Positions 2,513 to 26,615 of a stretch of DNA of 64,000 bases are shown here, one piece after another. The notes below the pieces were generated by a model that searched no databases, had not been told where the DNA came from, and saw nothing but the letters and a program-made list of their open reading frames with translations. Origin of the DNA: a virus (taxonomy: Duplodnaviria > Caudoviricetes); IMG/VR virus record IMGVR_UViG_3300037424_001593, positions 1 to 64,000 of that record. One strand, written 5' to 3'. The translations under genes and the position numbers were made by a program. The number at the start of each line of letters is the position of its first letter. Within the stretch, counting starts at the first letter, position 1.

Positions 2513-3712
2513 TCACACCTTCGATCGCAGCCCCTGCGGCGCGACCTTCTTCCAGATGACGCCAAGCGCGAGCGCGACACCGGCTGCAGCCCCGACAAGC
2601 GCGCCGTACGCCCAGCCTGCAGCGGGGTAAAGACACTCGACGTTCGTCTCGGGCACGATGAGGTTCACGTACCCACTATCGACTTCGGGCGGCGTTGTCC
2701 CTGCGGGCATCGGCACGTTCGTCACACTCTGCCCGGGCGCCACACCGCTCGAGCTCGAAGGCGTAACGACACCCCCAGATGTTGCGTCGGCCGCGAGCAT
2801 CGCGTTCTGGAACGCTGCGAGGTACCCCGGGATCGTTGATCCCAGCCCGCTGAGCGAGGAGGCCATCGAGCGCAAGCGCGCGCGACGCGAGGAGATCTCG
2901 CCCTCGGAGCTCATCACCGGACCGAACGCCCAGCCGCTCGTCGGAGGGAGCATGCGCGGCGCGTACGTCGGGTCTGCGATCGAGTTGAAGCCCCCTTGCG
3001 CTGCGTTCAGCGCAATGAAACCTCGACGCCGCAGTATCGCGCCTGATGCATCCCGGATCGGCTCGCGCGCGATCTCGATGCCGAGCGCCTTGAAGAGCGT
3101 GATTGGATCACACGTCGTCCCGATATCGTTGAGGTCAGGCCCCGGACGATACGCAGCTTCTCCACTTGAGCCGAAGATCGTCTTGTTGTTCCCTGGAAGC
3201 CAGTCGGGCGCGATGTTGTTGTACGTCGAGCGCTTGAGGTTCCGAAACTCGAAGTGCTCGTGATAGCCCATCGAGTGGAAGATGCCGTTGCGCGAGACGC
3301 CGATGCGCGCGATGTGCTGCCCTGCGGTGACACGATCACCTACAGCGACTCGGTAGTCCGCGAGGTGCGCGTAGAACGAGCACCAAGGTGTGCCGCGCGG
3401 ACCGATGAGTTGTGGGTGCTCGACGAGCACGCAGTTGCCGTAACCCGTCGTCGCGTTCTTCGCGTCTGCAGGCCACACCTCGCAGAAGACGAAGCGCACA
3501 ACGCCGTCCGCGACCGCGAATACGGGCCACGCGTTCGGCGGTTCATCGCCGTTGAAGTCGAGCCCCGCGTGAAACTTCGTGTGCCCTGCGAGCGTGCGCA
3601 GTCCGTAGTCCGAGCCGCAGAACATGCGATCGGCATCGACCGGAGGACACGCGCGGTGTCCGCTTGGGACGCCACGCGGCAAGAGCATGGCTGCGGTCAC
3701 TTCAAACGACAT
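2513..3712 (-). CDS. M23 family peptidoglycan endopeptidase with C-terminal transmembrane anchor
   Basis: HAGLD (HxxxD), VFAVADGVV, YGNCVLVEH, YAHL, HEHFE (HxH); hydrophobic C-terminus + WKK. Confidence 0.9.
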   Translation of the reverse strand: MSFEVTAAMLLPRGVPSGHRACPPVDADRMFCGSDYGLRTLAGHTKFHAGLDFNGDEPPNAWPVFAVADGVVRFVFCEVWPADAKNATTGYGNCVLVEHPQLIGPRGTPWCSFYAHLADYRVAVGDRVTAGQHIARIGVSRNGIFHSMGYHEHFEFRNLKRSTYNNIAPDWLPGNNKTIFGSSGEAAYRPGPDLNDIGTTCDPITLFKALGIEIAREPIRDASGAILRRRGFIALNAAQGGFNSIADPTYAPRMLPPTSGWAFGPVMSSEGEISSRRARLRSMASSLSGLGSTIPGYLAAFQNAMLAADATSGGVVTPSSSSGVAPGQSVTNVPMPAGTTPPEVDSGYVNLIVPETNVECLYPAAGWAYGALVGAAAGVALALGVIWKKVAPQGLRSKV

Positions 3713-3953
3713 CGGTCGCCTCCTCGTCGCTGAGCTCTTCGGCGATACGCCACATCGAAAGCAAGCCCCCGACGACGATCCCTGCGCCGGTCAGCGCCTC
3801 GGCTTGCTTGTGTTTGCCGCGCGCGTGCAGGCCCCACACGGTGAACGCGCCGAGCGTCCCACCGAGCGCGAGCGCGAGCTCGATACGCAACTTCCGAGCT
3901 CGAGGGTTCGAGTCGGGGATGATGCGGCCGAGCTGTTGAATCACGATGGCCAT
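3702..3953 (-). CDS. Small two-TM membrane protein
   Basis: Two hydrophobic segments; in structural operon. Confidence 0.65.
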   Translation of the reverse strand: MAIVIQQLGRIIPDSNPRARKLRIELALALGGTLGAFTVWGLHARGKHKQAEALTGAGIVVGGLLSMWRIAEELSDEEATDVV

Positions 3954-3956
3954 GGG

Positions 3957-4256
3957 CTACTTGCCTCCGACGCGACGCGCTGTAAGTGGTGCAGCGGCAG
4001 CAGCCGCTTCAGTAGGCGCATCTACCTCCGACTTGATTCGCAAACGGCGCTCTATATTCTCTCGCGCGCCTGCACCGGGAACAACCACCGCGTCGATGTC
4101 CCGCTTCAAAAGCACAGCCCACATGCCGTCGATCGTCTCTTCGGGAACGGCGTACGTTGTCGTGCCTGGTTTAGGGTAACCGAGATGATTGTTTACCCTG
4201 TTGATGTAGTTCTGCGCGGCCTGTTGTGTAGGGAAGAAATGGTAGGGCCGAATCAT
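3957..4256 (-). CDS. Hypothetical virion-associated protein
   Basis: ATGA overlap with upstream gene at 4253-4256. Confidence 0.55.
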   Translation of the reverse strand: MIRPYHFFPTQQAAQNYINRVNNHLGYPKPGTTTYAVPEETIDGMWAVLLKRDIDAVVVPGAGARENIERRLRIKSEVDAPTEAAAAAAPLTARRVGGK

Positions 4257-5014: not shown

Positions 5015-5557
5015 TCAGGATACCCAGAAAGCAGTAGCGCTCTGGCGCCAAATCAAATACGAAGGCGCTGTTTGCGGCGTCGTCGGTGACGGCACGAGCG
5101 TTGAGCCGGGCAACGACGTGATGCCCACACCCACGGCGCCACCATTGACGGTCTGTGTAACGCCCACGGCGAGCCCCATACCGAACACGGACGTGTTCGT
5201 TTTGGTAAGCACTCGAGAGACATCGATCGGCCAGGTCGTCAAGTCCGCCGCAGTTGGAAGCGTGAACGTCGCAAGTGCGCCGGTGTGAATATTCGCGATA
5301 GCGTTCTGCGTCGTCCAGTTGATGGCTGCGCCGTTTTCCGCAACGGTGCCGGAACGCTCGAGCGCACCCCACGTTGCACTGCCTGCGGTCGCAAGCGTGC
5401 ACACAAACGTCAGAAGCGCGCCCGTCACGTAGCAAAGATCGCCTACGGCGAGGTTTGCGTTCTGTATCGCCGCGCCGCTGACGTTCGGCAAATCTGCGGG
5501 CGTAGCCACGTTGGGCCACTGCCGAAAATCTGCGAGTGAAGGTCCGCGAACAGACAT
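5015..5557 (-). CDS. Short spike/fibre protein sharing an N-terminal module with 5557-6864
   Basis: ATPADLPNVSG..LAVGDLCYVTG..TFVCT..ATWGA vs ATAADLPNASG..LEVGDTAYVTG..QYVCT..ATWGA. Confidence 0.65.
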   Translation of the reverse strand: MSVRGPSLADFRQWPNVATPADLPNVSGAAIQNANLAVGDLCYVTGALLTFVCTLATAGSATWGALERSGTVAENGAAINWTTQNAIANIHTGALATFTLPTAADLTTWPIDVSRVLTKTNTSVFGMGLAVGVTQTVNGGAVGVGITSLPGSTLVPSPTTPQTAPSYLIWRQSATAFWVS

Positions 5558-6864
5558 TAGATGTTCCTCATCATGTTCAAGAACGATCCAGAAGCGTCCG
5601 TAACGGCGGTCGTGAACGTGCGAAGGTACCCTGAGCCTGTTGCGTTCGTTTGCGTCGCACTCACGTCAATACCAAGTGCGAAACCATCGAAGGAGCAGTT
5701 AGTTATGCTGTTGCCGACGCCCGTACCTTGGAAGGACGCGCCAGCGCTTGCGGCGTTGACACTCGTTGTTTGAAATGTGGAATCGGTAACACGTCCACAA
5801 ATCAAGCCGCTTGCGTTGCTGCCCGTTGCGAAGATAACACCGAACTGCGCAAGCGCTGCGATGTCCAGGATATACGCGTATCCGTTCTCCACTACAGGAC
5901 CCATGCGCAGTGCACCCGAGCCCGCGCTTGCGCCCAGACGTAGGGCTGCACGTCCCAGGCCCAAAAACTGCCAACCCACGCAGGACACAGTACCTTCTAA
6001 GTCAAAACCAATGTCTGCACGTTCAACCTGACAACTGATCAACTGCGACGTGCGTTGGAATGACGCTGCGCCGCGGGATTGAATCTCAAAACCGCTCAGA
6101 TCCGCAGCGACACCGAGCGCACGCTTCGAAACGCCGCTTAGAAGCACATGCTCGAGGTAAACACCTGCGTCCCCCGCAACGGTACGCACAATAGACGTAA
6201 GCGACTCATTCGCGACCTGTCCCGCGGTCTGCGTAGACATCGCGATTTCCACCTGGCGCATAGTCGCTAGATGGGCCAGCGAAATGACCTCTGTACCCGC
6301 AGCACCCACCGAAGGTGCAGGTACACCGATGAATACGTTCGAGAGCTCTGCGTACGTCGCGAGCGTTGCGATACGACGATTTGTCGCTGTAGCGTTAAAA
6401 ATCACGCCACCCCAGGTACCGCCGTAGCATCGCACAAAATCGGGTATTGTGAGCACTGTTGAAATCGTGTACGTCCCGGGACGAACCCACACATCCAAAC
6501 CAAGAGCGCCTGCCGCCGTAAGAGCCGCTTGAAGTTGCACCCCATCGCCCACGTCGAGGTAGTTACACACCTCGAGCGTATCACCCGCGACGCTGTTGCC
6601 TACGATGAGCCGCGGTCCTTGGTGGTCCGTGTTCGGGTTCGCGCCCCACGTTGCGTCAGCACCGCTGAGCGTGCCTTTCGACGTGCAAACATACTGTTGT
6701 GTGGTGCCTGTAACGTACGCGGTGTCGCCGACCTCAAGCTGCGTGAAGTACGGGTTGGCGAGTGCGTTTCCGCTCGCGTTCGGAAGATCTGCGGCAGTCG
6801 CGTAGTTGCCCCAGTCGCGGCTGTACTGCGAACGAGCTTGCAGCGTAGGAGTCTTCGCAGCCAT
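5557..6864 (-). CDS. Beta-helix (pectate-lyase-like) spike protein
   Basis: DGVQLQAALTAAGA..VWVRPGTYTISTVLTIP beta-helix cap motif; Asn/Gly-rich repeats downstream. Confidence 0.7.
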   Translation of the reverse strand: MAAKTPTLQARSQYSRDWGNYATAADLPNASGNALANPYFTQLEVGDTAYVTGTTQQYVCTSKGTLSGADATWGANPNTDHQGPRLIVGNSVAGDTLEVCNYLDVGDGVQLQAALTAAGALGLDVWVRPGTYTISTVLTIPDFVRCYGGTWGGVIFNATATNRRIATLATYAELSNVFIGVPAPSVGAAGTEVISLAHLATMRQVEIAMSTQTAGQVANESLTSIVRTVAGDAGVYLEHVLLSGVSKRALGVAADLSGFEIQSRGAASFQRTSQLISCQVERADIGFDLEGTVSCVGWQFLGLGRAALRLGASAGSGALRMGPVVENGYAYILDIAALAQFGVIFATGSNASGLICGRVTDSTFQTTSVNAASAGASFQGTGVGNSITNCSFDGFALGIDVSATQTNATGSGYLRTFTTAVTDASGSFLNMMRNI

Positions 6865-8018: not shown

Positions 8019-8019
8019 A

Positions 8020-8421
8020 TCAGCGCACCTTGTGCACGAGGTAGAAACCGCCGAGCGCGGCGAGCGGAAGCCCGATGAGGAGGATCTTCTTGCGGCGGAT
8101 CTGCGCGCGCACCGTCGCAAGACGTGCCGCCATGTCTGGGTAGTCGGCGAGGATGAGCAGGTCGAACTGCTCGACGATCGACGGGTCGAAAATCGTGAGC
8201 TGATCGCCACGCGGCCTGTGCGTCGCGACCCAGGTCTGCCAGTGCGCGATGTGTCCGAGCACGCTCTCGAGCACTGCGACGTTCGCGTCGCTGATGAACG
8301 AGCTGTTGATCATGTCGAGCGCTGTATCGTTAAGCACCTGCAGGTGCGTCATCAAGATGACGCCCGTCGCGAAATCAATCGGCGTGCCCTCGAAGCGGTT
8401 CGGGATGATGAGCGCGGTCAT
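8020..8421 (-). CDS. C-terminally anchored membrane protein
   Basis: ILLIGLPLAALGGFYLV + HKVR. Confidence 0.7.
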   Translation of the reverse strand: MTALIIPNRFEGTPIDFATGVILMTHLQVLNDTALDMINSSFISDANVAVLESVLGHIAHWQTWVATHRPRGDQLTIFDPSIVEQFDLLILADYPDMAARLATVRAQIRRKKILLIGLPLAALGGFYLVHKVR

Positions 8422-8880: not shown

Positions 8881-9297
8881 CTACCTCCGCGTTCGTGGTT
8901 TCTGAAAGAGCAGCATACCCGCACCGACGAGCCCGAGCAGCCCGACGAGCCCTTGGCCGACGTGGACGCTCGTTGTCACGTAGCCGCGCGTCTCCATGAT
9001 GTTCGCGAGCGAGGCGATGCTGACCTGCAGGCCCGCGCCGATGCCCGCGCCCCGCCAGTCGCCCCGCGTCGTCGCGAGCCCGATGCCGCCACCGACGACC
9101 GCTGCGGCGCCGAGCGAGACGAAAGAGCGCGCGGCCGGCGTCATCGAGCCGATCGACCCGAAGCCGCTCAGCGGCTTGAGGTTCACGACGGGCGCCTGGT
9201 TCGACTGCGCCATCACAACGCTGCCGAGCCGCGTGCCGCTCGCCTGCTGTGCCGCTTCGAGGAAAGGCATTGCTTGTTCGTCTTTCACGGCGTTCAT
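8881..9297 (-). CDS. Multi-TM membrane protein with LSGFG motif
   Basis: Three glycine-rich hydrophobic segments; basic C-terminus. Confidence 0.7.
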   Translation of the reverse strand: MNAVKDEQAMPFLEAAQQASGTRLGSVVMAQSNQAPVVNLKPLSGFGSIGSMTPAARSFVSLGAAAVVGGGIGLATTRGDWRGAGIGAGLQVSIASLANIMETRGYVTTSVHVGQGLVGLLGLVGAGMLLFQKPRTRR

Positions 9298-9920
9298 CTC
9301 CGAACCTGTGTGGAATACCAGTTGCTTGTGGAAGTGATTGCAGGCTGTGTTTTTTGGACCTGCGCGTAGACGTCTGGGACAGCATTACGCGCGAGGACGC
9401 CCGTCTCTACAGCGCCGCCACCTGCGCTTGTCGAAATCGCCACCGTGGTGCGTACAGGTACCTGCGTGCGTAGCTGCGCAGCTGTTGCTGTGATACCACC
9501 AAACCGTTCTACAAGCGCCTGATCGAACCACGAGAAGCGCGCTGCGGGGAGCGGCGAGCGCCAAGGTGTGTACGCGCCGTACGTGCGTCCCGCAGCTGAA
9601 GCAACCGCGCCCGTCCAATGATCGTACGGCGCCCATGTATTGCTGAACGGCGCGCGCGAAATAGTCACAGGCACAGGCACATTTGCAGTACCTGCGAGCG
9701 CGAGATTAGAGTACACGCGCCGCAGTAGCCCGTTTTTCAGCACGTTCGACGCGCTGTTGAACGCGCCGATAAGCGCGCGCAACCGCGTCTTGAACGCGGT
9801 GTTTTCGTTCACGGCTGTGGCGTGCGCCGACACAGTCGCCCACAAGCTCGCAAGCGCACTACGCGCTGTCCGCGCCGCGGAGAGTATGTAGAAGACGTCC
9901 TGTGTCGCGAGCTCAGACAT
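9294..9920 (-). CDS. Hypothetical virion protein
   Basis: Continuous operon, RBS; no recognised domain. Confidence 0.65.
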   Translation of the reverse strand: MSELATQDVFYILSAARTARSALASLWATVSAHATAVNENTAFKTRLRALIGAFNSASNVLKNGLLRRVYSNLALAGTANVPVPVTISRAPFSNTWAPYDHWTGAVASAAGRTYGAYTPWRSPLPAARFSWFDQALVERFGGITATAAQLRTQVPVRTTVAISTSAGGGAVETGVLARNAVPDVYAQVQKTQPAITSTSNWYSTQVRR

Positions 9921-10979
9921 TTAGACCTCAAGCATGTAGCGCGAGGGAACCTTGTCCCGGAGCGAACGCAGAGGCGTCGGCGAGCCGACACCGCGGCGCA
10001 CCTTGCGTCGCTTTTTCGACGCAGGTAGACCACGCATCGCAGGCGAGCTCGAGCCGCGCTTCCACTGCCAGAACTTATAGCCAGCGTAGATGAACACGGT
10101 GCTCACGACCGCGACGCCGATCCACCCGAACACGCCAAGCCCTGTGTCAGGCTGCGGAAGCTGGTTGAAGAACTCGGTGAGCGCGGCGCGCGGAACGACC
10201 TGCGCAGCGAGCGCCGAGCACTGCTCTGCGGTCGCACCTTCTTGCTGCATGCATGTGGCGAACGCCTGCTCTCGGTTACCGAGAAACTCTTCGACCGCAG
10301 ACGTCTGCGCCCACGTAAGGAAGAAGCGCTCGAGCGCAGGCACCCACACGCTGGTCAAGTACATCACGATGCCGACGGCTGCGAGCGCCGCGATCACCGC
10401 GAGTGCGATAGGGATGACCGCGGGGTTACCGAGCCCCTGCAGCGCTTGTGCGGGCGTACCCATCTCGAGCTTCGGGAGCCAGCCCGGGTAGGGGATGCGC
10501 GCCATCACCTGGTCGCCGATCGTGCGCCCGACCTTGTCGTAGAGTTGCACGCGGAGCGTCTGCAGGTAGACGACCTGCGTCTCGTGCACCGCGTGGCGGT
10601 ACGCGTCGTAGCGCGCGTACGCCTCTGCGTTCATGAGTCCTTGACCGTGCTGCCATGCGAAGCGCATGTACACGCTGAGCGCGCGCTGCTCGAGCTGGTT
10701 GAGCTGATTCCACGCGCTCTGAAAATCCGTCATCGGCGTGTAGTCGGTGAGGAACTCGGGCAAGAGCGCAGCGCGTAGACGCGCACGCACGCTCGCAGCC
10801 TGCACCACAGCCGCCTGCGCCGCTTCACCGCCCGTCGAAGCGCTGTCGCCCGCCTCACCGAGACCGCGCACGCCGCGAGGTACCTGCGCGCTCGTAGCGC
10901 GCGCTTCGTCTGCGCGAATCGCAGCCTCGGCACCTGCAGGGGAACCGAAGCCTCGACCGAATGCGTTCTGATTGAACAT
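9921..10979 (-). CDS. Two-TM membrane protein with repeated GLG/GFG motifs and basic tail
   Basis: TM IPIALAVIAALAAVGIVMYL and GVFGWIGVAVVSTVFIYAGY; KKRRKVRR. Confidence 0.75.
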   Translation of the reverse strand: MFNQNAFGRGFGSPAGAEAAIRADEARATSAQVPRGVRGLGEAGDSASTGGEAAQAAVVQAASVRARLRAALLPEFLTDYTPMTDFQSAWNQLNQLEQRALSVYMRFAWQHGQGLMNAEAYARYDAYRHAVHETQVVYLQTLRVQLYDKVGRTIGDQVMARIPYPGWLPKLEMGTPAQALQGLGNPAVIPIALAVIAALAAVGIVMYLTSVWVPALERFFLTWAQTSAVEEFLGNREQAFATCMQQEGATAEQCSALAAQVVPRAALTEFFNQLPQPDTGLGVFGWIGVAVVSTVFIYAGYKFWQWKRGSSSPAMRGLPASKKRRKVRRGVGSPTPLRSLRDKVPSRYMLEV

Positions 10980-10985
10980 GCGCGC

Positions 10986-11783
10986 TTACCTCGAGAGCAG
11001 GTAGTAGATTTGGACGTTCGCGTTTGTGGGAACGACGTACGTGTACTTAGGATCCGCGGCAGCGTCCAAAGGATCGATGTCCGCGAGCCCGACACGAAGG
11101 CGGAGCTCCGCGTACTGCGCGACGTCAAAGGGCAACGTGAACTGCGGCACGATCTCCGCCGACGCGGGCTGTGTAGCTACGCAGAACGCGTTGAAGTTGA
11201 GCTGCGTCGCGTAGCAGTTGCGGTACGCAACCCACGGGGGCGCAACGCTTGTGTACGCATCGACGATCGGCTGATAGCCGCGCACGGTCGGATCGACGAC
11301 GCCGATCGGATACCAGTAGAGCGTGTCGAGCTCGCTGTCGAGCGACTGCTGTGTCGTTTGGGGGATCGGCAGCGTCACTTCCGGAATCACCGCAAGTACG
11401 CTCACGGCGTTTGCGACCACGCTTGTGCCGGGGAAGTAGCGAAAGAAGAACGTGATGAAGCGCGCGTCGCGGACATCAATGGACGTGAGCACATCGCCGC
11501 CGACACCTACGACGCCGCCGCCAGCGAAGCTGATCTCGGTGAGCGGGTTCGTGGGATTCTGCTCTGTTGCCGTGCTAACGAACGTCGCGCGACGGTAAAG
11601 TTGCGGACCATCCACCTGCTTTGGCACTTCGAACTGCGGGAAGTCGTTACCTGGGATAGGCCGCGTCTCACCATCATCGCTCTCGAAGCCGAGCACCTGC
11701 ACGGGTGCCCCGTCGTCGCGAAGGGAACGTGCTTGCGCTTGCTGCGCCGTACGACTCGAGATGAGCTTGCTGTTCTTGCTCAT
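10986..11783 (-). CDS. Putative minor capsid/vertex beta-sandwich protein
   Basis: Start ATG 11783 (RBS AGGAG); alternating hydrophobic beta-strand patterns; follows capsid-like genes. Confidence 0.5.
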   Translation of the reverse strand: MSKNSKLISSRTAQQAQARSLRDDGAPVQVLGFESDDGETRPIPGNDFPQFEVPKQVDGPQLYRRATFVSTATEQNPTNPLTEISFAGGGVVGVGGDVLTSIDVRDARFITFFFRYFPGTSVVANAVSVLAVIPEVTLPIPQTTQQSLDSELDTLYWYPIGVVDPTVRGYQPIVDAYTSVAPPWVAYRNCYATQLNFNAFCVATQPASAEIVPQFTLPFDVAQYAELRLRVGLADIDPLDAAADPKYTYVVPTNANVQIYYLLSR

Positions 11784-12109
11784 GCTGTGACTCCTGCGTA
11801 CCACTCAATCGCAAGGCCCATCACGACGGTGTTGCCTTCGCACGCAAGCGCGAGGACTTGGCCCGGCGCGAGCGGCACCTCGAGCGTTTGTCCGTTTGCG
11901 AGCGGCACGAAGTTGTAGCCCTTCGAAGAGAGCACGTCCGCATCCGCTGGATCGAGCACACCGAGCACCGCTGCGCCTTGAGGGATGATCGGCGTTACCA
12001 CGCGCACGCGATTGTCTGCGGGTGGGAGCCGCTCGAGCACGACCTGAAGCTCTTGCGTAAGCACGACACGCAAGAGGTCTGTTCGCAGAAACTTTCCGTG
12101 GCCGCACAT
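11780..12109 (-). CDS. Small beta-rich virion protein
   Basis: ATGA overlap with next gene; LEVPLAPGQVLALAC resembles the capsid-paralogue motif. Confidence 0.5.
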   Translation of the reverse strand: MCGHGKFLRTDLLRVVLTQELQVVLERLPPADNRVRVVTPIIPQGAAVLGVLDPADADVLSSKGYNFVPLANGQTLEVPLAPGQVLALACEGNTVVMGLAIEWYAGVTA

Positions 12110-12113: not shown

Positions 12114-13181
12114 TCACCGCACCATCAAGTAGCCGTGGATGCCGATCGCAATCTGCGTCGGCGTAAGGAGACTCGTATCGGTGAGCGTGCTCGCGTAACG
12201 CGAGCCTTGCGCGCGCAATGTCTCCCCAGGCTCGAGCGTGAGCCCATCGCCCGGGAACGTGTGCACGATCGCGTTGCCTGTTTGGGTACCGAAGAGCGAG
12301 CTCGGCATGCGCACGACCGGCGTTGGCAGCGAAGGCCCACGCATCCAGTTGTTACCTGTGCCGTTGCCGACCTGCTTCACCTGCAGTCGATAGAGCCGCG
12401 TGTCGTAGAGCGCGGCGCTTGTCGCCGCGTCTGCCACGCTCGCGCCGACCGTGTTACCTGGACCAACCTGCAACGCCATCTCGACAATAGCCACAGGCTC
12501 GCCGCCGATGTTTTGAAACTGCGACGGGTCCAGCAACTGCGTGAGCGGGCCATTTGTCGGGAAAGTCTGAAATGCGCCGAACTGATACGGCCGCCCAGAA
12601 CGCAACCCTACACCGGTTGCGGTCACCGTGACGCCCGTACCGCCGCTCACAGTGATCGGCTCGCTTTCGACGAGACCGATCATCACAGGCTGGGCGCCTA
12701 GGATCTGCTCGACCGTGACATGTAGCGTGTCGCGCGACGAGAGCACCAGCGGCTGGTGGAAACGACACGACGCAACGCTGTTGCCGACGCTGAGCGGTGG
12801 CGCCGTGTACGTGTTGCACCAGCCAGGAAGGCGGATGCGGTTCTCGTTCATATAGAACTCTTGGTAGCGCTCGAGCCGCAGATCGACGCCCTGCGCGGCC
12901 TCGTTGTACGTGTACCGCAACACCGCTACCGGATCGACTACACCAACCGTGAGCGGCGCGTACATCGGCGACGCGATCACATGCGTGAGACGTACGGGAA
13001 ACTTCTCTGCGTTCGAAAACGTCGCGCCGTCGCCGTTATACACGGGCGGCGTCGAAACGTCAGTGTCGAATGTCGAGAAATCGAGGAAGTCGTAGTAGAA
13101 GCGCGGCTCGATGAGCACGCCCTTACCGTGGTTCACCGCGGCGAACGCAACGAGCTCTGCAAACGTTTTGTGCTGCGACAT
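12114..13181 (-). CDS. Capsid-like protein with two internal repeats (putative tandem jelly-roll)
   Basis: FSNAEKFPVRLTHV / FQNIGGEPVAIVEM; QPLVLSSRDTLHV / GLTLEPGETLRA; C-terminal IAIGIHGY. Confidence 0.55.
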   Translation of the reverse strand: MSQHKTFAELVAFAAVNHGKGVLIEPRFYYDFLDFSTFDTDVSTPPVYNGDGATFSNAEKFPVRLTHVIASPMYAPLTVGVVDPVAVLRYTYNEAAQGVDLRLERYQEFYMNENRIRLPGWCNTYTAPPLSVGNSVASCRFHQPLVLSSRDTLHVTVEQILGAQPVMIGLVESEPITVSGGTGVTVTATGVGLRSGRPYQFGAFQTFPTNGPLTQLLDPSQFQNIGGEPVAIVEMALQVGPGNTVGASVADAATSAALYDTRLYRLQVKQVGNGTGNNWMRGPSLPTPVVRMPSSLFGTQTGNAIVHTFPGDGLTLEPGETLRAQGSRYASTLTDTSLLTPTQIAIGIHGYLMVR

Positions 13182-13184: not shown

Positions 13185-14375
13185 TCAGGCCTCGACAGCG
13201 GCGTAACCGCAGAAGGAGATGTAGAAAAACGTATTGAGGTCGTCGTCTTCGCCTATGCCGAGCGGAGCGTTGAGGACACCTTGCTGGAGTTGCACGTCAA
13301 ACGCTTCACCGGGCGCAAGCGTAAGCGGTCGCGAAAGACGTGACGCAAACGCCGGTGTCATTGTCGGGCTGACGATCGAAAGCGGTGCGCCGTCTCGCCA
13401 CCAGTAGGCCTGCGTGCCCGCGTTGCGCGTGCGCACCTTGACGGGCGTGGTCATCGAGAGCGGCCCCGCAGTAGCGCGCGACGTCTCGTCGATCGAACGC
13501 TCATCGAACGTGATTGCGAGACCACCCAGGTTAGTCGGCACGTTGTAACTTGCCTTCTGCCTCAACATCTCGCGCGGCGAAAGCTGCTGTCCAGGCGGAT
13601 AATTTTGCGCTTCCGCGCCGCCCGTGTATCCAGCGTAGAACGTGATTGTGGGCGGCAACTCACCGCCTGAGGTGAGAAACTGCGTGAGCGCGTCTGCATA
13701 CGGCTGATAGCGCTGCGTTGCCGCTGCCACAGAGAGTTGTGCGATGCTCACTGCCTGCCGTGTGTACGTCATCTGCGGCCAGTTCGCAGGCGTCCCGGGT
13801 GCAGTCGGTGTGTACAAGTTGATGTCTGCCGTCGGCGTGGCTGCCGTCGTATCGACAAGCGTTGGTACGCGCGCGCCGAGCTGAATCTCGAGCATTGCAT
13901 CCGCAGGAAGCACAGGCGGAAGCTCGAAGTCCCAGGCACAGCGATTCACCGTCGGGCGATACCACGTCGGGTTTGCTGTAAGAAGCATCGGATTGGTTGC
14001 AAACGATGCCGGATCGAGAGGCTCCGCTGCCGGAACAGGCTCGAGCAACATCGGCGCGTAGTGCTTGCTGTAGCGCGGCCCTCCGGCAGTTGCGATGGAG
14101 AGCCCGATACTCGCGCCTGCACGCTGCACGGTCGTCGTGAGCCCACCTTCGGTCACCCACTGCATGATTACGTGGGTGAAGATGATGGGATACTTTTCGC
14201 CGTTGTAGAGCGTGTTGGGATCAATCGGCGTAGACACGCTATACAGGTTCGAGCTTGTCCGCGACAACGTCGCTGACCACAACGCGCGCGGCTCGTAGTA
14301 AAACCCCGGCTGCGGCTTGAGGAGCTCGTTCGCGGGCAGGGCGAGCAGGTTTTGCTGTCGTGCGTTGAGCTTCAT
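13185..14375 (-). CDS. Capsid-like protein with two internal repeats (paralogue of 12114-13181)
   Basis: LYNGEKYPIIFTHVI; FELPPVLPADAMLEIQL / RPLTLAPGEAFDVQL; C-terminal FYISFCGY. Confidence 0.55.
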   Translation of the reverse strand: MKLNARQQNLLALPANELLKPQPGFYYEPRALWSATLSRTSSNLYSVSTPIDPNTLYNGEKYPIIFTHVIMQWVTEGGLTTTVQRAGASIGLSIATAGGPRYSKHYAPMLLEPVPAAEPLDPASFATNPMLLTANPTWYRPTVNRCAWDFELPPVLPADAMLEIQLGARVPTLVDTTAATPTADINLYTPTAPGTPANWPQMTYTRQAVSIAQLSVAAATQRYQPYADALTQFLTSGGELPPTITFYAGYTGGAEAQNYPPGQQLSPREMLRQKASYNVPTNLGGLAITFDERSIDETSRATAGPLSMTTPVKVRTRNAGTQAYWWRDGAPLSIVSPTMTPAFASRLSRPLTLAPGEAFDVQLQQGVLNAPLGIGEDDDLNTFFYISFCGYAAVEA

Positions 14376-14477: not shown

Positions 14478-15158
14478 TCAGGCCACCGGACGACGCTTCA
14501 TGCCGTCGAGCCACCAGCGAAGACGGATCGCCTGATTCAGGTCGATCATCGTGTTGTACGTCTTGCACTGCAGGTAGAGGTTGCGGTCACTCTCGATGTA
14601 GATCGGGAGATTCAGCATCCACTGGTTGTTCGCACTGACGCGACCACCTGTGCCGACGTCGTACGCTGAGGCGCTGTCGACGACCTCCGCATACGAGGTG
14701 CCGTGGACCACGACGCCGACCGACTGCGGGATCCCGCTGAAGGGCTGGCGAAGCTGGGGCTTGCTCTGGTTCGCGCCCACGTAGAGCTCGACGACGACGT
14801 CGCGCTCGAGCACGAGCAGATTGTGCCGCGAGACCATCGGGATGTCGGCGGGGGAGCCGATGTCCGCAGCCTGCTCCGGCGCGGCGGTGAGGCCGAACGC
14901 TTCGTAGGTGACGCCGTACACGACGAAGGCTTCGTCGTAGTTCGTGCGTGCCTTCGTGAGCCAGTTCGTATCGTTGTCCGTCGAGTTGCGGGGCGCGAGA
15001 CCCTGCGACGAGACCGGATTACCCGACACGTACTGGAATGCACGGAGGTTGAGCTTGACGCCCGCCGCGAACTCCATGACGGAGTACTGGGGGTAGTGCA
15101 GCCACTCGTCGAGCTGGATGGTGCTGCCGTCGTAGAGTCGAAGATCGCGGATTGCCAT
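14478..15158 (-). CDS. Putative major capsid protein paralogue 3 (single jelly-roll-like)
   Basis: LRLYDG..EW..QYS..AFQY..RNSTDNDTN..EAFVVYGV..LNLPIYI..LRWWLDGMKRRPVA. Confidence 0.65.
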   Translation of the reverse strand: MAIRDLRLYDGSTIQLDEWLHYPQYSVMEFAAGVKLNLRAFQYVSGNPVSSQGLAPRNSTDNDTNWLTKARTNYDEAFVVYGVTYEAFGLTAAPEQAADIGSPADIPMVSRHNLLVLERDVVVELYVGANQSKPQLRQPFSGIPQSVGVVVHGTSYAEVVDSASAYDVGTGGRVSANNQWMLNLPIYIESDRNLYLQCKTYNTMIDLNQAIRLRWWLDGMKRRPVA

Positions 15159-15176: not shown

Positions 15177-15896
15177 TCAGGCGACGGGGCGCTTGTGATC
15201 GCCGAGAAGGTGGATGCGCAAGCGAATGCGCGCGTCTGCCGCAGAAGAGCCAGTGAAGGCCAGCGCGGAGGGCGAATCGATCGCACCGGTCGGCGCGATG
15301 AAGCGCGCCCGGAACGTCTCACCACCCTGGATGAAGAGGGGCGACGCGAGCTGCCGCACGCCCTTGATGCTCGTCGAGCCGTTGTTGCCGACGATGTAGC
15401 CTGCCGCGCCGGAGAATCCGACACCGCCCGCCGTGCCGCTCTCCGCGCCCGAACCGGCTGCGAAAAACGAGACCGGAACGCGGAGGTATTCCTTCACGCC
15501 CGCGATGAGGAAGCTCATGATGAGCGAGTCCTGAATGCGGAGCATGTTGCGCAGACCGACATCGGGGAAGATCTCGTTGTCCGCACTCGTCATGAGCGGC
15601 GCCTCGCTCGGCGTGCCCACATTGATGCTGTAGAACTCGATGCGGATCGCTCGGATGAGCATCGCTTCGTTTTCCGGCAGCTGTCCACCCTGACCCTGCA
15701 GGTTGGTGTCGGCGTACGTCGCGTTGCGCTGCGCCGCGCCCGGGATGGCCTGGTTCAGGCCGTAGGAGAAGGCGTCGAGCGTCGTGAACGAGCCCGTGCC
15801 GAGCTCCACGGTCGAGTAGAGACCCTCCGCCGTGGTCCAGTCGGCCGGCGTCATCACGCGGCCATCTGGATATCGAATCTTGAGTAGCTGACCCAT
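15177..15896 (-). CDS. Putative major capsid protein paralogue 2 (single jelly-roll-like)
   Basis: Start ATG 15896; IRYPDG..DW..LYST..AFSY..RNATYADTN..EAMLIRAI..LASPLFI..LRIHLLGDHKRPVA. Confidence 0.65.
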   Translation of the reverse strand: MGQLLKIRYPDGRVMTPADWTTAEGLYSTVELGTGSFTTLDAFSYGLNQAIPGAAQRNATYADTNLQGQGGQLPENEAMLIRAIRIEFYSINVGTPSEAPLMTSADNEIFPDVGLRNMLRIQDSLIMSFLIAGVKEYLRVPVSFFAAGSGAESGTAGGVGFSGAAGYIVGNNGSTSIKGVRQLASPLFIQGGETFRARFIAPTGAIDSPSALAFTGSSAADARIRLRIHLLGDHKRPVA

Positions 15897-15918: not shown

Positions 15919-16662
15919 TCAGCTGACGGGCTTCTTGTAGAGGCCTTCGAGGCACACACGCACTCGATAGAGGCGCTGCGCGTTCGCGGCCGGAGAACCC
16001 ACAGCGTTTGCGGTGAGACCGATGTTCAGGGCCTCGCTCGTGGGATTACGGACCTGGATTTCGAACTTCTCCTGGCCGCCGATGTGGATCGGGACCGTGA
16101 GACAGCGCGAAGCCTCCGCCGAAGGGATGCCGCTCGCGCCCGTCGGGATCGCCGACTGCGCTGCGACCGTACCGGCTGCGCCGGCCTGAGAGAACACACC
16201 GAAGCCGGTCGGCCAGTAGGCGAACGGTGCACGGTGCTTGAGCTTCTGGCTGATCAGGATCTCGAACACGGTGGAGCGGAACAGACGTCCGAGCTGCCAC
16301 GGTGAGGGGAGCGGATCGAAGGCCAGCGTCTCGACAGCGGTCGTCGCGTTGCCGGCCGAGCTCATCACGAGCGCTGCGAACTCGGGCTTGACGGAGTAGA
16401 TCAGGAACTCCTCCGTCGAGCTGAGGCCGTTCGGCGTCGAGATGTTCGTGTCGGCTTCGGTCGCCGTGCGCTTCGTCGTGATGTTCTGGGTCGAAGAGAC
16501 CTGATCGCTCACGACGTAGTTGAAGAGTGGGATGATCTCGTCCGTCGCGCCATTCATGATGTCGCAGGTCGAGTACAGCGGCTGGTCGGTCCAGTCCACG
16601 AACGCGACTTGCTGGCCGTCAGGAAGGCGGAGCGTCGTGATCTGGTTGATGGGTGAGAACAT
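15919..16662 (-). CDS. Putative major capsid protein paralogue 1 (single jelly-roll-like)
   Basis: LRLPDG..DW..LYST..LFNY..RTATEADTN..EEFLIYSV..LTVPIHI..VRVCLEGLYKKPVS. Confidence 0.65.
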   Translation of the reverse strand: MFSPINQITTLRLPDGQQVAFVDWTDQPLYSTCDIMNGATDEIIPLFNYVVSDQVSSTQNITTKRTATEADTNISTPNGLSSTEEFLIYSVKPEFAALVMSSAGNATTAVETLAFDPLPSPWQLGRLFRSTVFEILISQKLKHRAPFAYWPTGFGVFSQAGAAGTVAAQSAIPTGASGIPSAEASRCLTVPIHIGGQEKFEIQVRNPTSEALNIGLTANAVGSPAANAQRLYRVRVCLEGLYKKPVS

Positions 16663-16682: not shown

Positions 16683-17309
16683 TCAGACGCGGAAGCCCGG
16701 CGTACCGAAAGCCTTCATGTTGAGCCCAGCGTCACCGAGACCCTGGAGCTGGATGTTGGTCCCGTAGTCCCCGCTGAGACCGCGCATGCCCGCGATGGAA
16801 TCAGGGCGGTGACCCTGCGGCCAGTTCTCGAGCACCGTGGCACCGAGGCCGTTCATCTGCGGCATGACCATCCCCATGCCGGACGCGCTGCCGTACTCAG
16901 GGACGATCGCGCCGAAGCCCGCCGTGCCCGTCGCAGCCGGGGCGATGGCGAGCGTGCCCTCGCGGACGTACGCGCCAGCACCTGCGAGCAGGGCCGTGGT
17001 CGTCGCAGCGATGGCTGCGCGGTGACCCTGCTTGAGGCCGTACGCCATGCTCGCACCGAGGAGCGCGCCCGCGGCCATGCCGATCGCGGGGGCGTGTCGG
17101 TTGAGCATCGCGCCGGTCTGCGTGCCGGGCGAGAGCTTGGGCACGACGAAGCGGCGCACGAGCCAGATGGCTCCTACGGCCGTTCCACCGCCGACGAGGA
17201 TCGGAAGCGCCGTGCCCACGACCGTGTTGGAGTCGAAGAGGCCGTTGACGCCCCGACGAACCTCGATGATGTTTCCGAATCCGCGCCGTGAGCGCTTACG
17301 CTTTGCCAT
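16683..17309 (-). CDS. Three-TM virion membrane protein with basic N-terminus and six G[LFM]G/S motifs
   Basis: MAKRKRSRRGFG; hydrophobic segments; AGFG, SGMG, NGLG, RGLS, QGLG. Confidence 0.75.
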   Translation of the reverse strand: MAKRKRSRRGFGNIIEVRRGVNGLFDSNTVVGTALPILVGGGTAVGAIWLVRRFVVPKLSPGTQTGAMLNRHAPAIGMAAGALLGASMAYGLKQGHRAAIAATTTALLAGAGAYVREGTLAIAPAATGTAGFGAIVPEYGSASGMGMVMPQMNGLGATVLENWPQGHRPDSIAGMRGLSGDYGTNIQLQGLGDAGLNMKAFGTPGFRV

Positions 17310-19415: not shown

Positions 19416-19452
19416 CGTGAGCACCTGTGGTCGGTGTTGAACCGTTCTTTTT

Positions 19453-19464
19453 TCTTATACCCCG
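19453..19464 (-). promoter_or_regulatory. Putative late promoter CGGGGTATAAGA
   Basis: Exact repeat of motif. Confidence 0.7.
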
Positions 19465-22584: not shown

Positions 22585-22977
22585 TCACCGTTTCGCGGGC
22601 TTGCCGAAGCCCTGATAGAACGCGACGCCCGTCGTGATGATCGGGAAGAACGCCGCAGAGAGTCCCCAAAGCGCGCCGTAGCCGACGCTCTTTCGGTTGC
22701 GCTTGTACCCGTGGTACGCGCTTGCACCGAGGCACACGAGCCCAAGCCCGAGGCGCGCATACCCGAGTGGCGTAATCGTCATCTCGCCGAGCCCGCTGAA
22801 GCCCGCCATGCGGCTCGCGACCGCAGCCGGCGTGTGCTGATTCCACGCCTCGGTCGGTTGATCCGGCTGACCGATAGCACCCCACACAGGCGCGACGTTG
22901 TTCTGTGGGAGGCGCGGGCTCACGATCGGACGCGGGCGCCAATCCCATTGCACATCTGGCTGCAGACTGTTGTTCAT
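22585..22977 (-). CDS. Membrane protein (ASAYHGYKRN..WG..FP..QGFG domain)
   Basis: Two TM segments after FSGLG. Confidence 0.75.
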   Translation of the reverse strand: MNNSLQPDVQWDWRPRPIVSPRLPQNNVAPVWGAIGQPDQPTEAWNQHTPAAVASRMAGFSGLGEMTITPLGYARLGLGLVCLGASAYHGYKRNRKSVGYGALWGLSAAFFPIITTGVAFYQGFGKPAKR

Positions 22978-22983: not shown

Positions 22984-23601
22984 TCAGCGCCCGTGAAAGT
23001 AGCGACGTTGCGCGTCTTGCATCTGCGCGACCTCACGCATCGCACGCCCGGAATCGACAGCCTTGTAGCTCGCGGCTTCCTGCTCCATGCGGCGCACAGC
23101 CGTACCGTACGCCTCGAGAGGCGCGCTGATGGGCTGCCGAAGCGGGCGGACACGCGGGGTCGCGACCTGCTCGGGCGGATAGTCCACAGCGGGCTGGCTC
23201 ATCGCATTCGAGCCACCCTTCACTGCAGCCATTTCATACGTCTGTTGCACGCCGCCCGGAACGTTGGTCTGCCGGATCTCGCGGAGCCCCGAGCCGCTCT
23301 GGCGCATCGCCGAGGCGTAACCCATGGCTGACGCTGTCGCGGGGGTGCGTTCACCGCGTGCGATGCCGCCTGGACCACGCTTGTGCATCTCGAGCGCCAT
23401 CCCTTGAGGAAGGATCATCGCAGGCTGAAAATCCTGCGTCGTCGCGTTTGAACGAAACTGCTCGACGGCACCCGCGAACCGACGCGGATCACGCGTCGTG
23501 AGCGAGGTGCGGAGCAGGTCCACCGGCAACCGCTGGATCGCTTGCGGAGGGGTGAAAGCGCTACCGAAGTGACCGCGGGGGTTGAAAACCGGATAGGGCA
23601 T
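22984..23601 (-). CDS. Hypothetical virion protein
   Basis: Start ATG 23601 directly behind late-promoter motif and GAGG RBS. Confidence 0.65.
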   Translation of the reverse strand: MPYPVFNPRGHFGSAFTPPQAIQRLPVDLLRTSLTTRDPRRFAGAVEQFRSNATTQDFQPAMILPQGMALEMHKRGPGGIARGERTPATASAMGYASAMRQSGSGLREIRQTNVPGGVQQTYEMAAVKGGSNAMSQPAVDYPPEQVATPRVRPLRQPISAPLEAYGTAVRRMEQEAASYKAVDSGRAMREVAQMQDAQRRYFHGR

Positions 23602-23609
23602 CGCCTCTA

Positions 23610-23621
23610 TCTTATACCCCG
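23610..23621 (-). promoter_or_regulatory. Putative late promoter CGGGGTATAAGA
   Basis: Exact repeat of motif. Confidence 0.7.
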
Positions 23622-23634
23622 GCGAGAAAATGCC

Positions 23635-23743
23635 TTGCGGCCGGGGCTGCGCCCCGGTTACCGTTCGGGTGTTCGATCTTCGGATCGTGCACACCCAACT
23701 GGAACAGGGCGAGGAGGGCAAACCCACCCCGCCTTTTCCTTTT
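23635..23743 (+). ncRNA. Small-RNA unit copy D
   Basis: TTGCGG-18-TACCGT; hairpin GGGTGT..CGATC-TTCG-GATCG..ACACCC; GGGCGAGGAGGG-CAAA-CCCACCCCGCC + TTTTCCTTTT. Confidence 0.75.
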
Positions 23744-24528: not shown

Positions 24529-24530
24529 CC

Positions 24531-24854: not shown

Positions 24855-24866
24855 CGTGTCAAGGCA

Positions 24867-26009
24867 TCACGGGCGCAGCGCCATGTCGAGCGGATGCGGC
24901 TCGATCTGAAGCATCGTGAAGTCGATGTTCCACGCCGTGGTCACGCCCGTGTTCACAACGGTAACGCCGACCGTGTCGAGTGCCGTAGCCGCCCATGAGC
25001 TCGCATACGGTCCGCTCGAGACCATGTCCACCGAAACGGACTCGGTGACGCCTGCGACAGGGCCACTGCCGTCGAAATGCACGCTGACGACAGGTGTCGC
25101 GCCTGCGACAGGCGACGTGAACACCCAGGTGATCTCGAACGTTGCGCCACCGGTGCGCGCATCGAGCACGCCGACAGCATTCGCGGCGAATCCAGGCGTG
25201 AAGAGCCCGGGGACACCCGCACCACCTTCGTCCGGGTCGAGGTTGGTGAACGCAGCCTGGTTGCTGTCGTTCTGTGCAGCGATGCCGAGGATGCGCGTGC
25301 CCGCAGCATTGCTAATGCACAGGCCGAGCAGGTTGCGTCCTGCGTTCGTGACGTCCGAGAACGTCGCGAGGCAGCGCGCGCGGATCACGAATCGATTCGT
25401 CGTCGGTATCGTGAAGTCGTTGATGGCGAAGAACACGCCGCCGACATCGAGCTCGGTCGATGCGAATCGAAGCGCACCACCGCTTACGCTGCGCGTGAGT
25501 CCCGCGATGTTCGCGCCGACGTCCATGTCGATCGCAGCGTCGAACTGCGTGACATCCGCGCCGTTCCAGCGCCACAGCACGTTTCCACCCGGCGCCCATT
25601 GCGCGCCGTCGTAGATGAGCGAATCACCGAGTGCAGGCGCAGCTGCGCTGACAGTAACACCTTGAATCGTCGTCGCATCACCACCGCCTGCACCGCTGTA
25701 GATGGCGGGGAGCGGCGTGATGGCGCTGAAGACCGTGGGATAGGCGATCCCGCGGCGAGCACAGGCGTCGATGAGCTCAGCGTCGGTATACGCGAGCGGA
25801 CAGAGCACACCGTTGTGCCCGAGCGATTCCCACTGTTGGATGATCTGCGCGATCGTAACCGCGTCGGACGTGTTGATCGCGAGCTCGACAGGCTGATCTG
25901 TCGAGGTGAGACCGTAAATGTGCGCATACGGATCGACTGCACCGGGCTGAAGCGTGCCCGTGAACGAGACAATCCATCCGCCACGCCATTCATACGCTGT
26001 TGTAGGCAT
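24867..26009 (-). CDS. Spike/receptor-binding protein; N-terminal module shared with 50674-51312
   Basis: WRGGWI..IQQWES..PLA.T..EL.DAC..RGI.YPT.F; DATTIQGVTVSAAAP..GDSLIYDG..W fibre-type linker; beta-rich C-terminus. Confidence 0.65.
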   Translation of the reverse strand: MPTTAYEWRGGWIVSFTGTLQPGAVDPYAHIYGLTSTDQPVELAINTSDAVTIAQIIQQWESLGHNGVLCPLAYTDAELIDACARRGIAYPTVFSAITPLPAIYSGAGGGDATTIQGVTVSAAAPALGDSLIYDGAQWAPGGNVLWRWNGADVTQFDAAIDMDVGANIAGLTRSVSGGALRFASTELDVGGVFFAINDFTIPTTNRFVIRARCLATFSDVTNAGRNLLGLCISNAAGTRILGIAAQNDSNQAAFTNLDPDEGGAGVPGLFTPGFAANAVGVLDARTGGATFEITWVFTSPVAGATPVVSVHFDGSGPVAGVTESVSVDMVSSGPYASSWAATALDTVGVTVVNTGVTTAWNIDFTMLQIEPHPLDMALRP

Positions 26010-26048
26010 TTTTCTGCTTTTCCTTTTCTTCTTACGTTGCCGGCACCA

Positions 26049-26615
26049 TCACATCGCGAAGTCGCGGTACTGCTTCGACCCCGCGTACTCCCAACCGGGA
26101 GTAGAGCCTTTGACCGTCGGATCAAGCGCAACGAGTGGACCCCCGCGACGTCCACGCGAGACCATCGTGTAAACGTGTTGCCAGACTTCATTGTCTGTGC
26201 TGATCACTCGCGCGAGCGTATTCGAGAAGCCAAGCGCCTTCAGTAAAGAGCACAGAACGATCGTGCTGTCGTCGCAATCGCCGAGGCCATAGAACAATGT
26301 TCTACGCACAGTGCAAAACAGATCGTAGTCGGGAGGATCGTGTTCGTACTCGACGTTGAGCACGCAGAAATTCCACACCGTGTTGATCACGCAGGTATCA
26401 TTCGTGATGTTCGTACACGGCGCACAGCGGTGAACTTTACCCCACGCAGTGACGCGGTCACGTCCTGTGAAGAGCCCTCGCGCGAGCTTGTGTGTTTCCG
26501 GATCTGCGAGTGATTTTTGGACCTGTCGGCGGATCAACCCGACGTGGTCGTCGAGGTTGTTGGTCTCCCAGATACGTGCACCGGGGTCGTTCAAATCGAT
26601 GGCGCGCTTGGACAT
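26049..26615 (-). CDS. Transglutaminase-like (Cys-His-Asp) protein, candidate maturation protease
   Basis: GDCDD..LCSLLKALG, WQHVY, ALDPT. Confidence 0.85.
   Translation of the reverse strand: MSKRAIDLNDPGARIWETNNLDDHVGLIRRQVQKSLADPETHKLARGLFTGRDRVTAWGKVHRCAPCTNITNDTCVINTVWNFCVLNVEYEHDPPDYDLFCTVRRTLFYGLGDCDDSTIVLCSLLKALGFSNTLARVISTDNEVWQHVYTMVSRGRRGGPLVALDPTVKGSTPGWEYAGSKQYRDFAM

Follow-up and report, generated by a model that had tools for sequence, protein, structure and literature searches.

A 24-kb late gene block of a 77-kb virus that probably specifies a tailless, jelly-roll-shelled virion

The window analysed here (64,000 nt, bases 1–64000 of the 76,963-bp IMG/VR virus record IMGVR_UViG_3300037424_001593) contains a late block of 30 open reading frames (ORFs), all co-oriented on the minus strand from position 26615 down to 2513, and the question that this block raises is what kind of virion it encodes. 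The original prediction, drawn from the sequence letters, was an unusually large tailless, membrane-containing double-stranded DNA (dsDNA) phage. Our analysis supported this interpretation: positions 2513–26615 are likely to be the virion module, with virion and lysis genes, of a complete 77-kb bacterial dsDNA virus that is tailless and jelly-roll-shelled. The record carries 127-bp direct terminal repeats and is rated complete, has a GC content of ~62% and holds 111 genes according to a codon-usage gene call. A megablast search of GenBank phages with the 24-kb block gave no match, and literature searches found no publication describing the lineage, which is apparently both widespread and undescribed.

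Five capsid-type genes in the late block

The evidence that carries this reading comes from five genes in two size classes:

15919..16662, minus strand: small jelly-roll capsid paralogue A, 247 amino acids (aa) (AlphaFold2 model and structural matches)
15177..15896, minus strand: small jelly-roll capsid paralogue B, 239 aa (BLASTP and alignment; the longest ORF runs up to 15959)
14478..15158, minus strand: small jelly-roll capsid paralogue C, 226 aa (BLASTP; conserved orthologue group)
13185..14375, minus strand: large capsid paralogue, 396 aa (AlphaFold2 model from 27 sequences)
12114..13181, minus strand: second large capsid paralogue, 355 aa (reciprocal matches with the 396-aa family)

The three small proteins align end to end and are linked by BLASTP (B to A, E 6e-17; C to A, E 1e-14; B to C, E 1e-10), and the 396-aa and 355-aa families are distant paralogues by reciprocal hidden Markov model (HMM) matches (E 1e-11 to 1e-17). 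The capsid-like beta-sandwich paralogues noted in the original prediction are thus real, and they are predicted as jelly rolls: the two that were modelled (247 and 396 aa) both adopted this fold, whereas any other fold was the outcome that the prediction had named as speaking against it.

The AlphaFold2 model of paralogue A, built from 129 sequences with a predicted local distance difference test score (pLDDT) of 92.5, is an eight-stranded beta-sandwich forming a single jelly roll. In an exhaustive structural comparison with 48,161 Protein Data Bank (PDB) representatives, the best solved match was the SPV1 capsid protein (6oj0; Z 7.3, 139 residues aligned, root-mean-square deviation 3.5), followed by HHIV-2 (Z 6.0), HCIV-1 (Z 5.9), satellite panicum mosaic virus (Z 5.7) and P23-77 VP17 (Z 5.7) and VP16 (Z 4.3). 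With this tool a Z below 8 can reflect a common arrangement only, and because the values are modest we describe paralogue A as a capsid-type jelly roll and not as a member of any family. The SPV1, HHIV-2, HCIV-1 and P23-77 matches are shell proteins of membrane-containing tailless viruses. Foldseek agreed weakly (SPV1 probability 0.93–0.97), and the predicted viral structures that it matched to paralogue A included SPV1 VP4, I1ZBI0 (probability 1.00) and I1ZBH9 (0.99). A profile of the small paralogues returned nothing at E <= 10 against PDB sequences, and tblastn with paralogue A found no match in GenBank phages. The structural resemblance of paralogue A is modest and shows a fold-level likeness, not membership. 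A predicted complex of A, B and C scored 0.05 relative to a mark of 0.32, a result that counts neither for nor against binding.

In the model of the 396-aa protein (pLDDT 79.5, predicted template modelling score 0.83), residues ~24–117 and ~320–396 form one jelly roll that is split by a beta-sandwich inserted at ~118–320, so that the domains are nested and not tandem; hhalign detected no internal duplication. Its structural matches are weak and mostly to capsid or scaffold jelly rolls. The outer barrel resembles poxvirus D13/Orfv075 (Z 4.6–4.9), PBCV-1 (Z 4.3) and SPV1 (Z 4.1), the insert resembles the projection (P) domain of infectious bursal disease virus (IBDV) VP2 (Z 3.9; Foldseek to birnavirus VP2, E 5e-4), and no HK97-like match was found for this model. 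Double jelly-roll (DJR) proteins (D13, PBCV-1, faustovirus) match one barrel only, at Z 3.8–4.9. Comparison of the outer barrel with the small paralogues gave a weak kinship signal (probability 13–25%), and the family profile returned nothing at E <= 10 against PDB sequences. A word-index search recovered only 4–5 proteins of the 396-aa family; the flanks of related loci yielded further members.

The five genes recur together. Searched against 1.84 billion proteins at E <= 1e-3, a profile of A, B and C matched 279 clusters, represented at 50% identity, and none of the 279 carries a name. The same genes lie on six IMG/VR contigs of 30–81 kb, among them two complete ones (69.5 and 80.6 kb) and one marked as a provirus, and on fifty metagenome loci; individual relatives are cited below by G or L handles. 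Across these contigs and loci the gene order A-B-C-396-355 is fixed, the 355-aa gene is conserved in every related genome, and the five genes are the best-conserved structural genes of the 30–81-kb relatives. Each small paralogue has its own orthologue group, with B orthologues at the same position in 27 related loci, which implies that the triplication is old and that all copies have been retained.

Two observations concern the layout of the large genes. The 396-aa and 355-aa genes lie in the same frame, separated by a TGA and one codon (13181–13187), and this spacing is also present in L003 (5979–5987), L005, L026 and L055, but not in other loci. The metagenome locus L055 further carries two tandem genes of the 355-aa type (9321–10358 and 10358–11482), giving six capsid-type genes in all.

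Tailed-phage hallmarks and packaging ATPases

We compared the 20 largest late proteins with PHROGs, and 10 of them with Pfam. Only three gave clear family matches (an M23 peptidase, a pectate-lyase-like beta-helix protein and a transglutaminase-like protein), and among the 20 there was no match to any family of terminases, portals, HK97 capsids or tail tubes or sheaths. No terminase PHROG was matched among the 30 proteins scanned in all. Six-frame profile searches over the whole 76,963-bp record, in which the controls responded, returned nothing at E <= 1 for the large terminase TerL (PF03354 and PF03237), the HK97 major capsid protein (MCP; PF05065), one portal family (PF04860), FtsK (PF01580) or poxvirus A32 (PF04665). 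The statement in the original prediction that the 24-kb block has no terminase, portal, HK97 capsid or tail tube or sheath genes therefore holds for the families searched. Its caveat that tail or packaging genes could lie outside the window does not: the remaining 13 kb encodes a tyrosine integrase and small proteins, with no ORF above 300 aa, the whole-record profiles were empty, and in these searches the complete genome showed no TerL, portal, HK97 MCP or tail module. The FtsK/A32 ATPase that was missing from the window was not found anywhere in the complete record either.

The tail-related signal is limited to weak matches. The scanned late proteins matched none of the portal, tube, sheath or tape-measure PHROG families as such; the M23 peptidase gave weak domain-level matches to two tape-measure families, and the beta-helix protein weak matches to tailspike families. 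Measured against established taxa, neither the large terminase nor the HK97-fold MCP of Caudoviricetes was found, the latter with two of the ~30 late proteins folded, and the FtsK/HerA-superfamily packaging ATPase of Helvetiavirae and the A32/FtsK-type packaging ATPase of Bamfordvirae/Varidnaviria are likewise missing.

These data bear on whether the virus could be a very divergent tailed phage, in which the hallmark genes have drifted beyond profile detection and the jelly rolls are decoration, cement or fibre components. Jelly-roll proteins of this kind from tailed phages do match paralogue A (the 7-7-1 fibre and the Pam1 and KHP40 cement proteins, Z 5.0–5.4), the beta-helix protein has its weak tailspike matches, and folding covered two of the ~30 late proteins. 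To our knowledge, however, every known TerL carries a Walker-A motif, and a six-frame scan found canonical Walker-A motifs with ATPase family support only in the DUF3987 and AAA_24 proteins of the replication module. One further Walker-A match, in a protein resembling single-stranded DNA-binding protein (SSB), is probably due to chance, leaving no unexplained P-loop ORF in the complete genome, and a motif scan of relatives, including the complete genomes G002 and G004, found no further conserved Walker-A protein. Tailed phages would also show TerL, portal and MCP as their best-conserved structural genes, whereas here these are the jelly-roll genes. Together with the empty TerL, portal and HK97 profiles, this makes a tailed phage improbable.

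Most published tailless jelly-roll prokaryotic viruses use an FtsK/A32 motor, and a tailless jelly-roll virus could still package actively through one of its two P-loop proteins, the DUF3987 protein (D5/SF3-helicase-like) being a likelier motor than the AAA_24 ATPase. One gene adjoins the late module:

26721–28085, plus strand: DUF3987 P-loop gene, bordering the late module beside the protease gene, from which it is divergently transcribed

It stays a neighbour of the late module in G002, G004, L005, L007 and L008, and the AAA_24 ATPase is conserved in G002, G004 and G005. Against such a role, DUF3987 proteins are associated with primases and helicases, and the genome is otherwise without a replicative helicase; the AAA_24 gene lies between a PD-(D/E)XK nuclease gene and the SSB-like gene, a usual recombination context; and neither protein matches the FtsK or A32 profiles. 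We regard active packaging as unlikely, although less so than a tailed particle.

Other late genes, the genome and its relatives

The rest of the late block fits the preferred reading of a tailless, jelly-roll-shelled virus. Upstream of and around the capsid genes lie the following features (TM, transmembrane; pI, isoelectric point):

26049..26615, minus strand: transglutaminase-like (papain-type) cysteine protease candidate, 188 aa, first gene of the module (Transglut_core)
24867..26009, minus strand: acidic protein, 380 aa, pI 4.2, no family or PDB match
22585..22977, minus strand: small membrane protein, 130 aa, with a TM helix; conserved in G002, G004 and L008
19471..22203, minus strand: long ORF (up to 910 aa); one region is rich in Ala and Gln, and a TM anchor lies at the C-terminus
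19056–19424, 18852–19025 and 17373–17657, minus strand: three small, very basic proteins (pI 11–12, 30–47% Lys+Arg)
18010–18852, minus strand: TM-anchored protein among the basic-protein genes
16683..17309, minus strand: basic-headed TM protein just upstream of the capsid genes (pI 11.1, TM helix at ~residue 30)

The protease candidate matches Pfam Transglut_core (E 1.4e-5, 25.8 bits for a cut-off of 23) and is conserved in G002, G004, L005, L007 and L008. Short basic matches adjoin the capsid genes in L003, G002, L075 and L076, and the three basic proteins, the core-type proteins of the original prediction, may condense DNA. The N-terminus of the basic-headed TM protein is kept in L003, G002 and L008. 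The long ORF, whose true start is probably internal, has TM helices at ~residues 713 and 886, shows 36% identity over 475 aa in G002 and has no PHROG, Pfam or PDB match. The acidic 380-aa protein has no match among the relatives and is possibly a host-specific surface protein. The long ORF, the acidic 380-aa protein and the protease candidate, each used as a single-sequence query against the PDB, gave nothing significant.

Downstream of the capsid genes the block continues with:

8881..12109, minus strand: accessory virion proteins of 138, 208, 352, 272 and 109 aa, several with TM helices
4253..8210, minus strand: spike/receptor-binding region, with beta-helix paralogues at 6864–8210 and 5557–6864, a protein at 5015–5557 and a 253-aa protein
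3702–3953, minus strand: small hydrophobic protein
2513–3712, minus strand: M23 peptidase with a C-terminal TM anchor (PHROG endolysin/peptidase, E 2e-16; TM helix at residue 367)

The accessory proteins have no family match in PHROGs or Pfam, and those of 352, 272 and 109 aa are kept in G002 and L003. The beta-helix protein at 6864–8210 matches a Pfam pectate-lyase-like family (E 2e-7), its tailspike PHROG matches lying at E 1e-3 to 9e-3. BLASTP establishes paralogy among the spike genes (E 7e-31 and E 8e-11), the shorter 5015–5557 protein having its N-terminal domain in common with both beta-helix paralogues, and the three look like interchangeable spikes. From their sequences, the M23 peptidase and the small hydrophobic protein are predicted to function in lysis or entry. 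In all, 10 of the 30 late proteins have a predicted TM helix, in keeping with the many TM-anchored proteins first noticed.

An MCP of unrecognised fold could hide among these unannotated proteins, with the jelly rolls as virion components outside the shell; several sizeable ones, the long ORF of up to 910 aa and the proteins of 352, 272 and 380 aa, have neither annotation nor model. Yet in distant relatives the unannotated proteins are missing or show little conservation, while none lacks any of the five jelly-roll genes; several of the unannotated proteins also carry TM helices, unlike shell proteins. A chromosomal island in a Gemmatimonadota metagenome-assembled genome (MAG) recognisably shares only the jelly-roll block and one small downstream gene. 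An MCP elsewhere in the block thus has a slim chance, comparable to that of a divergent tailed phage.

Two short motifs set the late genes apart. The tripeptide G[LFM]G occurs 24 times in late proteins, compared with 8.5 +/- 2.8 expected from per-protein shuffles, and shows no excess in the other 81 proteins (12 versus 9.9 expected). Several sites come after an N-terminal Arg-rich head, a position that would suit a cleavage or assembly signal. At the DNA level, the motif GNGGKATAAGA has six copies versus 0.04 expected, each 8–28 nt 5' of a gene start:

17329–17339, minus strand: GNGGKATAAGA, 5' of the basic-headed TM protein gene
19453–19463, minus strand: GNGGKATAAGA
23610–23620, minus strand: GNGGKATAAGA
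26624–26634, minus strand: GNGGKATAAGA
47551–47561, plus strand: GNGGKATAAGA
54917–54927, plus strand: GNGGKATAAGA

The four minus-strand copies lie just 5' of late genes; the sequence GAGGTATAAGA sits 8 nt 5' of the protease candidate gene (26049–26615), and the copy at 23610 places the true start of ORF 22984–23727 close to 23601. Behind the copy at 54917 comes the gene of a conserved 267-aa protein whose C-terminus bears a TM helix; given this position, that gene may be a late one as well.

The plus-strand half of the genome is a replication and nucleotide-metabolism module that encodes the DUF3987 protein, an SNF2 helicase, a methyltransferase-like protein, a pyrophosphatase, ThyX, the PD-(D/E)XK nuclease, the AAA_24 ATPase, the SSB-like protein, a fusion of uracil-DNA glycosylase (UDG), exonuclease and PolA, and an RNase T-like exonuclease. 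The closest GenBank phage matches of PolA are actinophage polymerases of only ~25% identity. Further features named in the text are:

2005–2385, minus strand: one-piece transfer-messenger RNA (tmRNA) just below the late block (Rfam, 102.5 bits; tag peptide ANDNAEPILAQAA)
46808–47518, plus strand: putative sigma factor (Sigma70_r2, sub-threshold)

PolA (fused to UDG), ThyX and the tmRNA were all found as originally described. For the sigma factor, a Sigma70_r2 match does exist, although it is sub-threshold (E 0.004, 17 bits for a cut-off of 24), and no region-4 Sigma70 match was found in this protein.

Two other plus-strand genes were noted. The product of 49353–50417 has a weak, sub-threshold Amidase_2 match (E 0.0015), which suggests a second cell-wall hydrolase, encoded outside the late block. 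The 643-aa protein at 30355–32286 has no Pfam or PHROG match and is barely conserved among relatives; its basic N-terminus is followed by a long helical middle part rich in Ala, Gln and Glu and by a stretch rich in Pro and Gln, and its tail is very acidic.

The core common to the relatives consists of the five jelly-roll genes, the protease, the small membrane protein, DUF3987, SNF2, PD-(D/E)XK, AAA_24, UDG-PolA and the integrase. The lineage is placed in bacteria because the five-gene block of one relative lies in the complete Gemmatimonadota MAG chromosome CP070815.1 (L076, 1178599–1199339), as an island of <=14 kb without the PolA module, between metallo-beta-lactamase and ABC-transporter genes. 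The tmRNA did not uphold Gemmatimonadota as the host of the present virus: its tag ANDNAEPILAQAA differs from the ANHNLALAA tag of the Gemmatimonadota MAG, and the capsid gene occurs in only 1 of 301 Gemmatimonadota genomes searched. The same chromosome also holds a UDG-PolA-like ORF of 1503 aa (G006:C1:2236668-2240819), ~1 Mb from the capsid island, and a second, weaker capsid-paralogue match at 3.715 Mb. The Gemmatimonadota matches could represent a smaller relative, a remnant or several elements.

Such an island without PolA, together with the integrase on the record, would also suit a non-viral element, plasmid-like or integrative, whose jelly rolls form a cellular compartment or surface structure. 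The discrete 77-kb genome with terminal repeats, the lysis-type peptidases, the spikes, the self-contained replication module and the common late motif all argue for a virus, as do the relatives, which recur as viral contigs of similar size. We consider a non-viral element very improbable, more so than any of the alternatives above.

Proposed virion and comparison with known systems

Returning to the tailless, jelly-roll-shelled virus, we propose that the five jelly-roll proteins would tile an icosahedral shell over an internal membrane, which the TM-protein content suggests and which about ten TM-anchored late proteins would populate. The three small, highly basic proteins would condense the DNA, and co-assembly would enclose it, with no motor pumping. 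We infer motor-less packaging because a packaging ATPase is missing, with precedents in the Odin group (PMC5894146) and in the nucleoprotein core of SPV1 (PMC8459092). As the protease gene is conserved and G[LFM]G is enriched, the transglutaminase-like cysteine protease may mature virion proteins, with the G-[L/F/M]-G sites as possible points of cleavage. Vertex spikes would be formed by the beta-helix proteins, and the membrane-anchored M23 peptidase may cut peptidoglycan at entry or lysis.

Several points weigh against this reading. The structural Z values are modest, reaching 7.3 for paralogue A and 4.9 for the 396-aa protein, and non-capsid proteins also contain jelly rolls. Folding covered only 2 of the ~30 late proteins, and among the others a capsid or portal fold of great divergence is conceivable; the packaging ATPase is missing by profile and motif searches; and a crude hydropathy window was used to call the TM helices. 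An M23 lysin and spikes of beta-helix type suit tailed phages equally well. The support comes from genes and models, from which the particle, its lipid and its proteome are deduced.

A bolder proposal, which we advance tentatively and with clearly less confidence than the tailless reading itself, is that these viruses form an undescribed bacterial lineage of high rank (family or above) with 53–81-kb genomes. It would combine a membrane-lined icosahedral shell of five jelly-roll proteins, condensation by basic proteins with no packaging NTPase, and a transglutaminase-like protease cutting at G-[L/F/M]-G, that is, adenovirus- or SPV1-like assembly with a phage-type PolA module. If true, such a widespread lineage, motor-less and with five genes for jelly-roll shell proteins, would push up the size limit known for this architecture, would give motor-less enclosure of dsDNA behind a membrane a second example, this one from bacteria, and would bear on the relation of single jelly-roll shells across SPV1, Helvetiavirae and SSIP-1. 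Automatic pipelines label such contigs as tailed phages (Atlas taxa for the related contigs read 'Uroviricota'), and the lineage is therefore hidden in viromes at present.

Among known systems, the best structural match of paralogue A is to Portogloboviridae SPV1, which has a single jelly-roll shell over an inner lipid layer and its DNA in a nucleoprotein core formed with a small basic protein; its ICTV profile assigns no packaging ATPase among the functions (PMC8459092). SPV1 is archaeal and ~20 kb, with two shell proteins (VP4 and VP10) and no polymerase, whereas the present virus has 77 kb, five jelly-roll genes and a PolA module, and profile searches found no sequence similarity of SPV1 to the present capsid families. 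The archaeal (Saccharolobus) host and ~20-kb circular, polymerase-free genome of Portogloboviridae are thus not seen here, since the genome is 77 kb with UDG-PolA and the five-gene block of a relative lies in a Gemmatimonadota chromosome.

Among Helvetiavirae (P23-77, HHIV-2, HCIV-1 and SH1), the vertical single jelly-roll shell proteins of HHIV-2, HCIV-1 and P23-77 match paralogue A at Z 4.3–6.0, values too low to tell kinship from a shared fold, and a monomer model cannot give the vertical orientation. Helvetiavirae combine two kinds of shell protein, a small one and a larger one in which a second barrel is added to a base barrel (PMC4958249), and the 240-aa and 355/396-aa classes of the present virus parallel this; the nested layout modelled for the 396-aa protein is reminiscent of P23-77, whose large capsid protein has a base and a tower (PMC4958249). 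Helvetiavirae also have vertex spikes and an internal membrane, and for the present virus the corresponding reading is from genes, with TM helices in 10 of 30 late proteins. Helvetiavirae have genomes of 16–31 kb, two shell proteins and a conserved FtsK/HerA-type ATPase, whereas here the genome is 77 kb with five shell-type genes and no such ATPase was found. The Varidnaviria-type gene inventory first proposed thus stands as regards a tailless, jelly-roll virus, but the likeness is to the single jelly-roll proteins of SPV1 and Helvetiavirae and not to double jelly-roll ones; in 2025 the ICTV moved Helvetiavirae from Varidnaviria to the realm Singelaviria (PMC12714852).

Motor-less encapsidation has been proposed for Odin-group prokaryotic DJR viruses, which lack a packaging ATPase, and the prokaryotic DJR viruses surveyed in 2018 (Yutin et al.) have genomes of 7–18 kb (PMC5894146). 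The Odin group differs in its single double jelly-roll capsid protein and small genomes, and its proteins have no homology to the present ones.

The largest cultured tailless membrane phage, SSIP-1 (43.8 kb, circular, ~100 nm, T=49), exceeds the ~10–31 kb that the original prediction had given for known phages of this kind, and at 77 kb the present virus is nearly twice its size. The SSIP-1 shell is possibly of single jelly-roll type, with adjacent structural genes gp44–gp47 of 210–256 aa. The Foldseek matches I1ZBI0 (256 aa) and I1ZBH9 (211 aa) equal gp47 and gp46 in length and, judged by length and adjacency only, are probable SSIP-1 structural proteins. Sequence-profile kinship with SSIP-1 was not significant (best E 0.012 among 30 proteins), and no protein in the SSIP-1 record is annotated as a DNA polymerase, whereas the present virus has UDG-PolA.

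In adenovirus, Arg/Lys-rich core proteins condense DNA within a jelly-roll shell, a virion cysteine protease cuts short Gly-containing sites, and a packaging ATPase, IVa2, is present. The three basic proteins, the cysteine protease candidate and the enriched G[LFM]G of the present virus are alike by analogy only; the candidate is transglutaminase/papain-like and not adenain, and its cleavage activity is a prediction. The present virus lies outside SPV1, Helvetiavirae and SSIP-1 with respect to the packaging ATPase, the size of the genome, the count of shell genes and the host, and by analogy it would nonetheless work most like SPV1 and the Helvetiavirae/SSIP-1 group.

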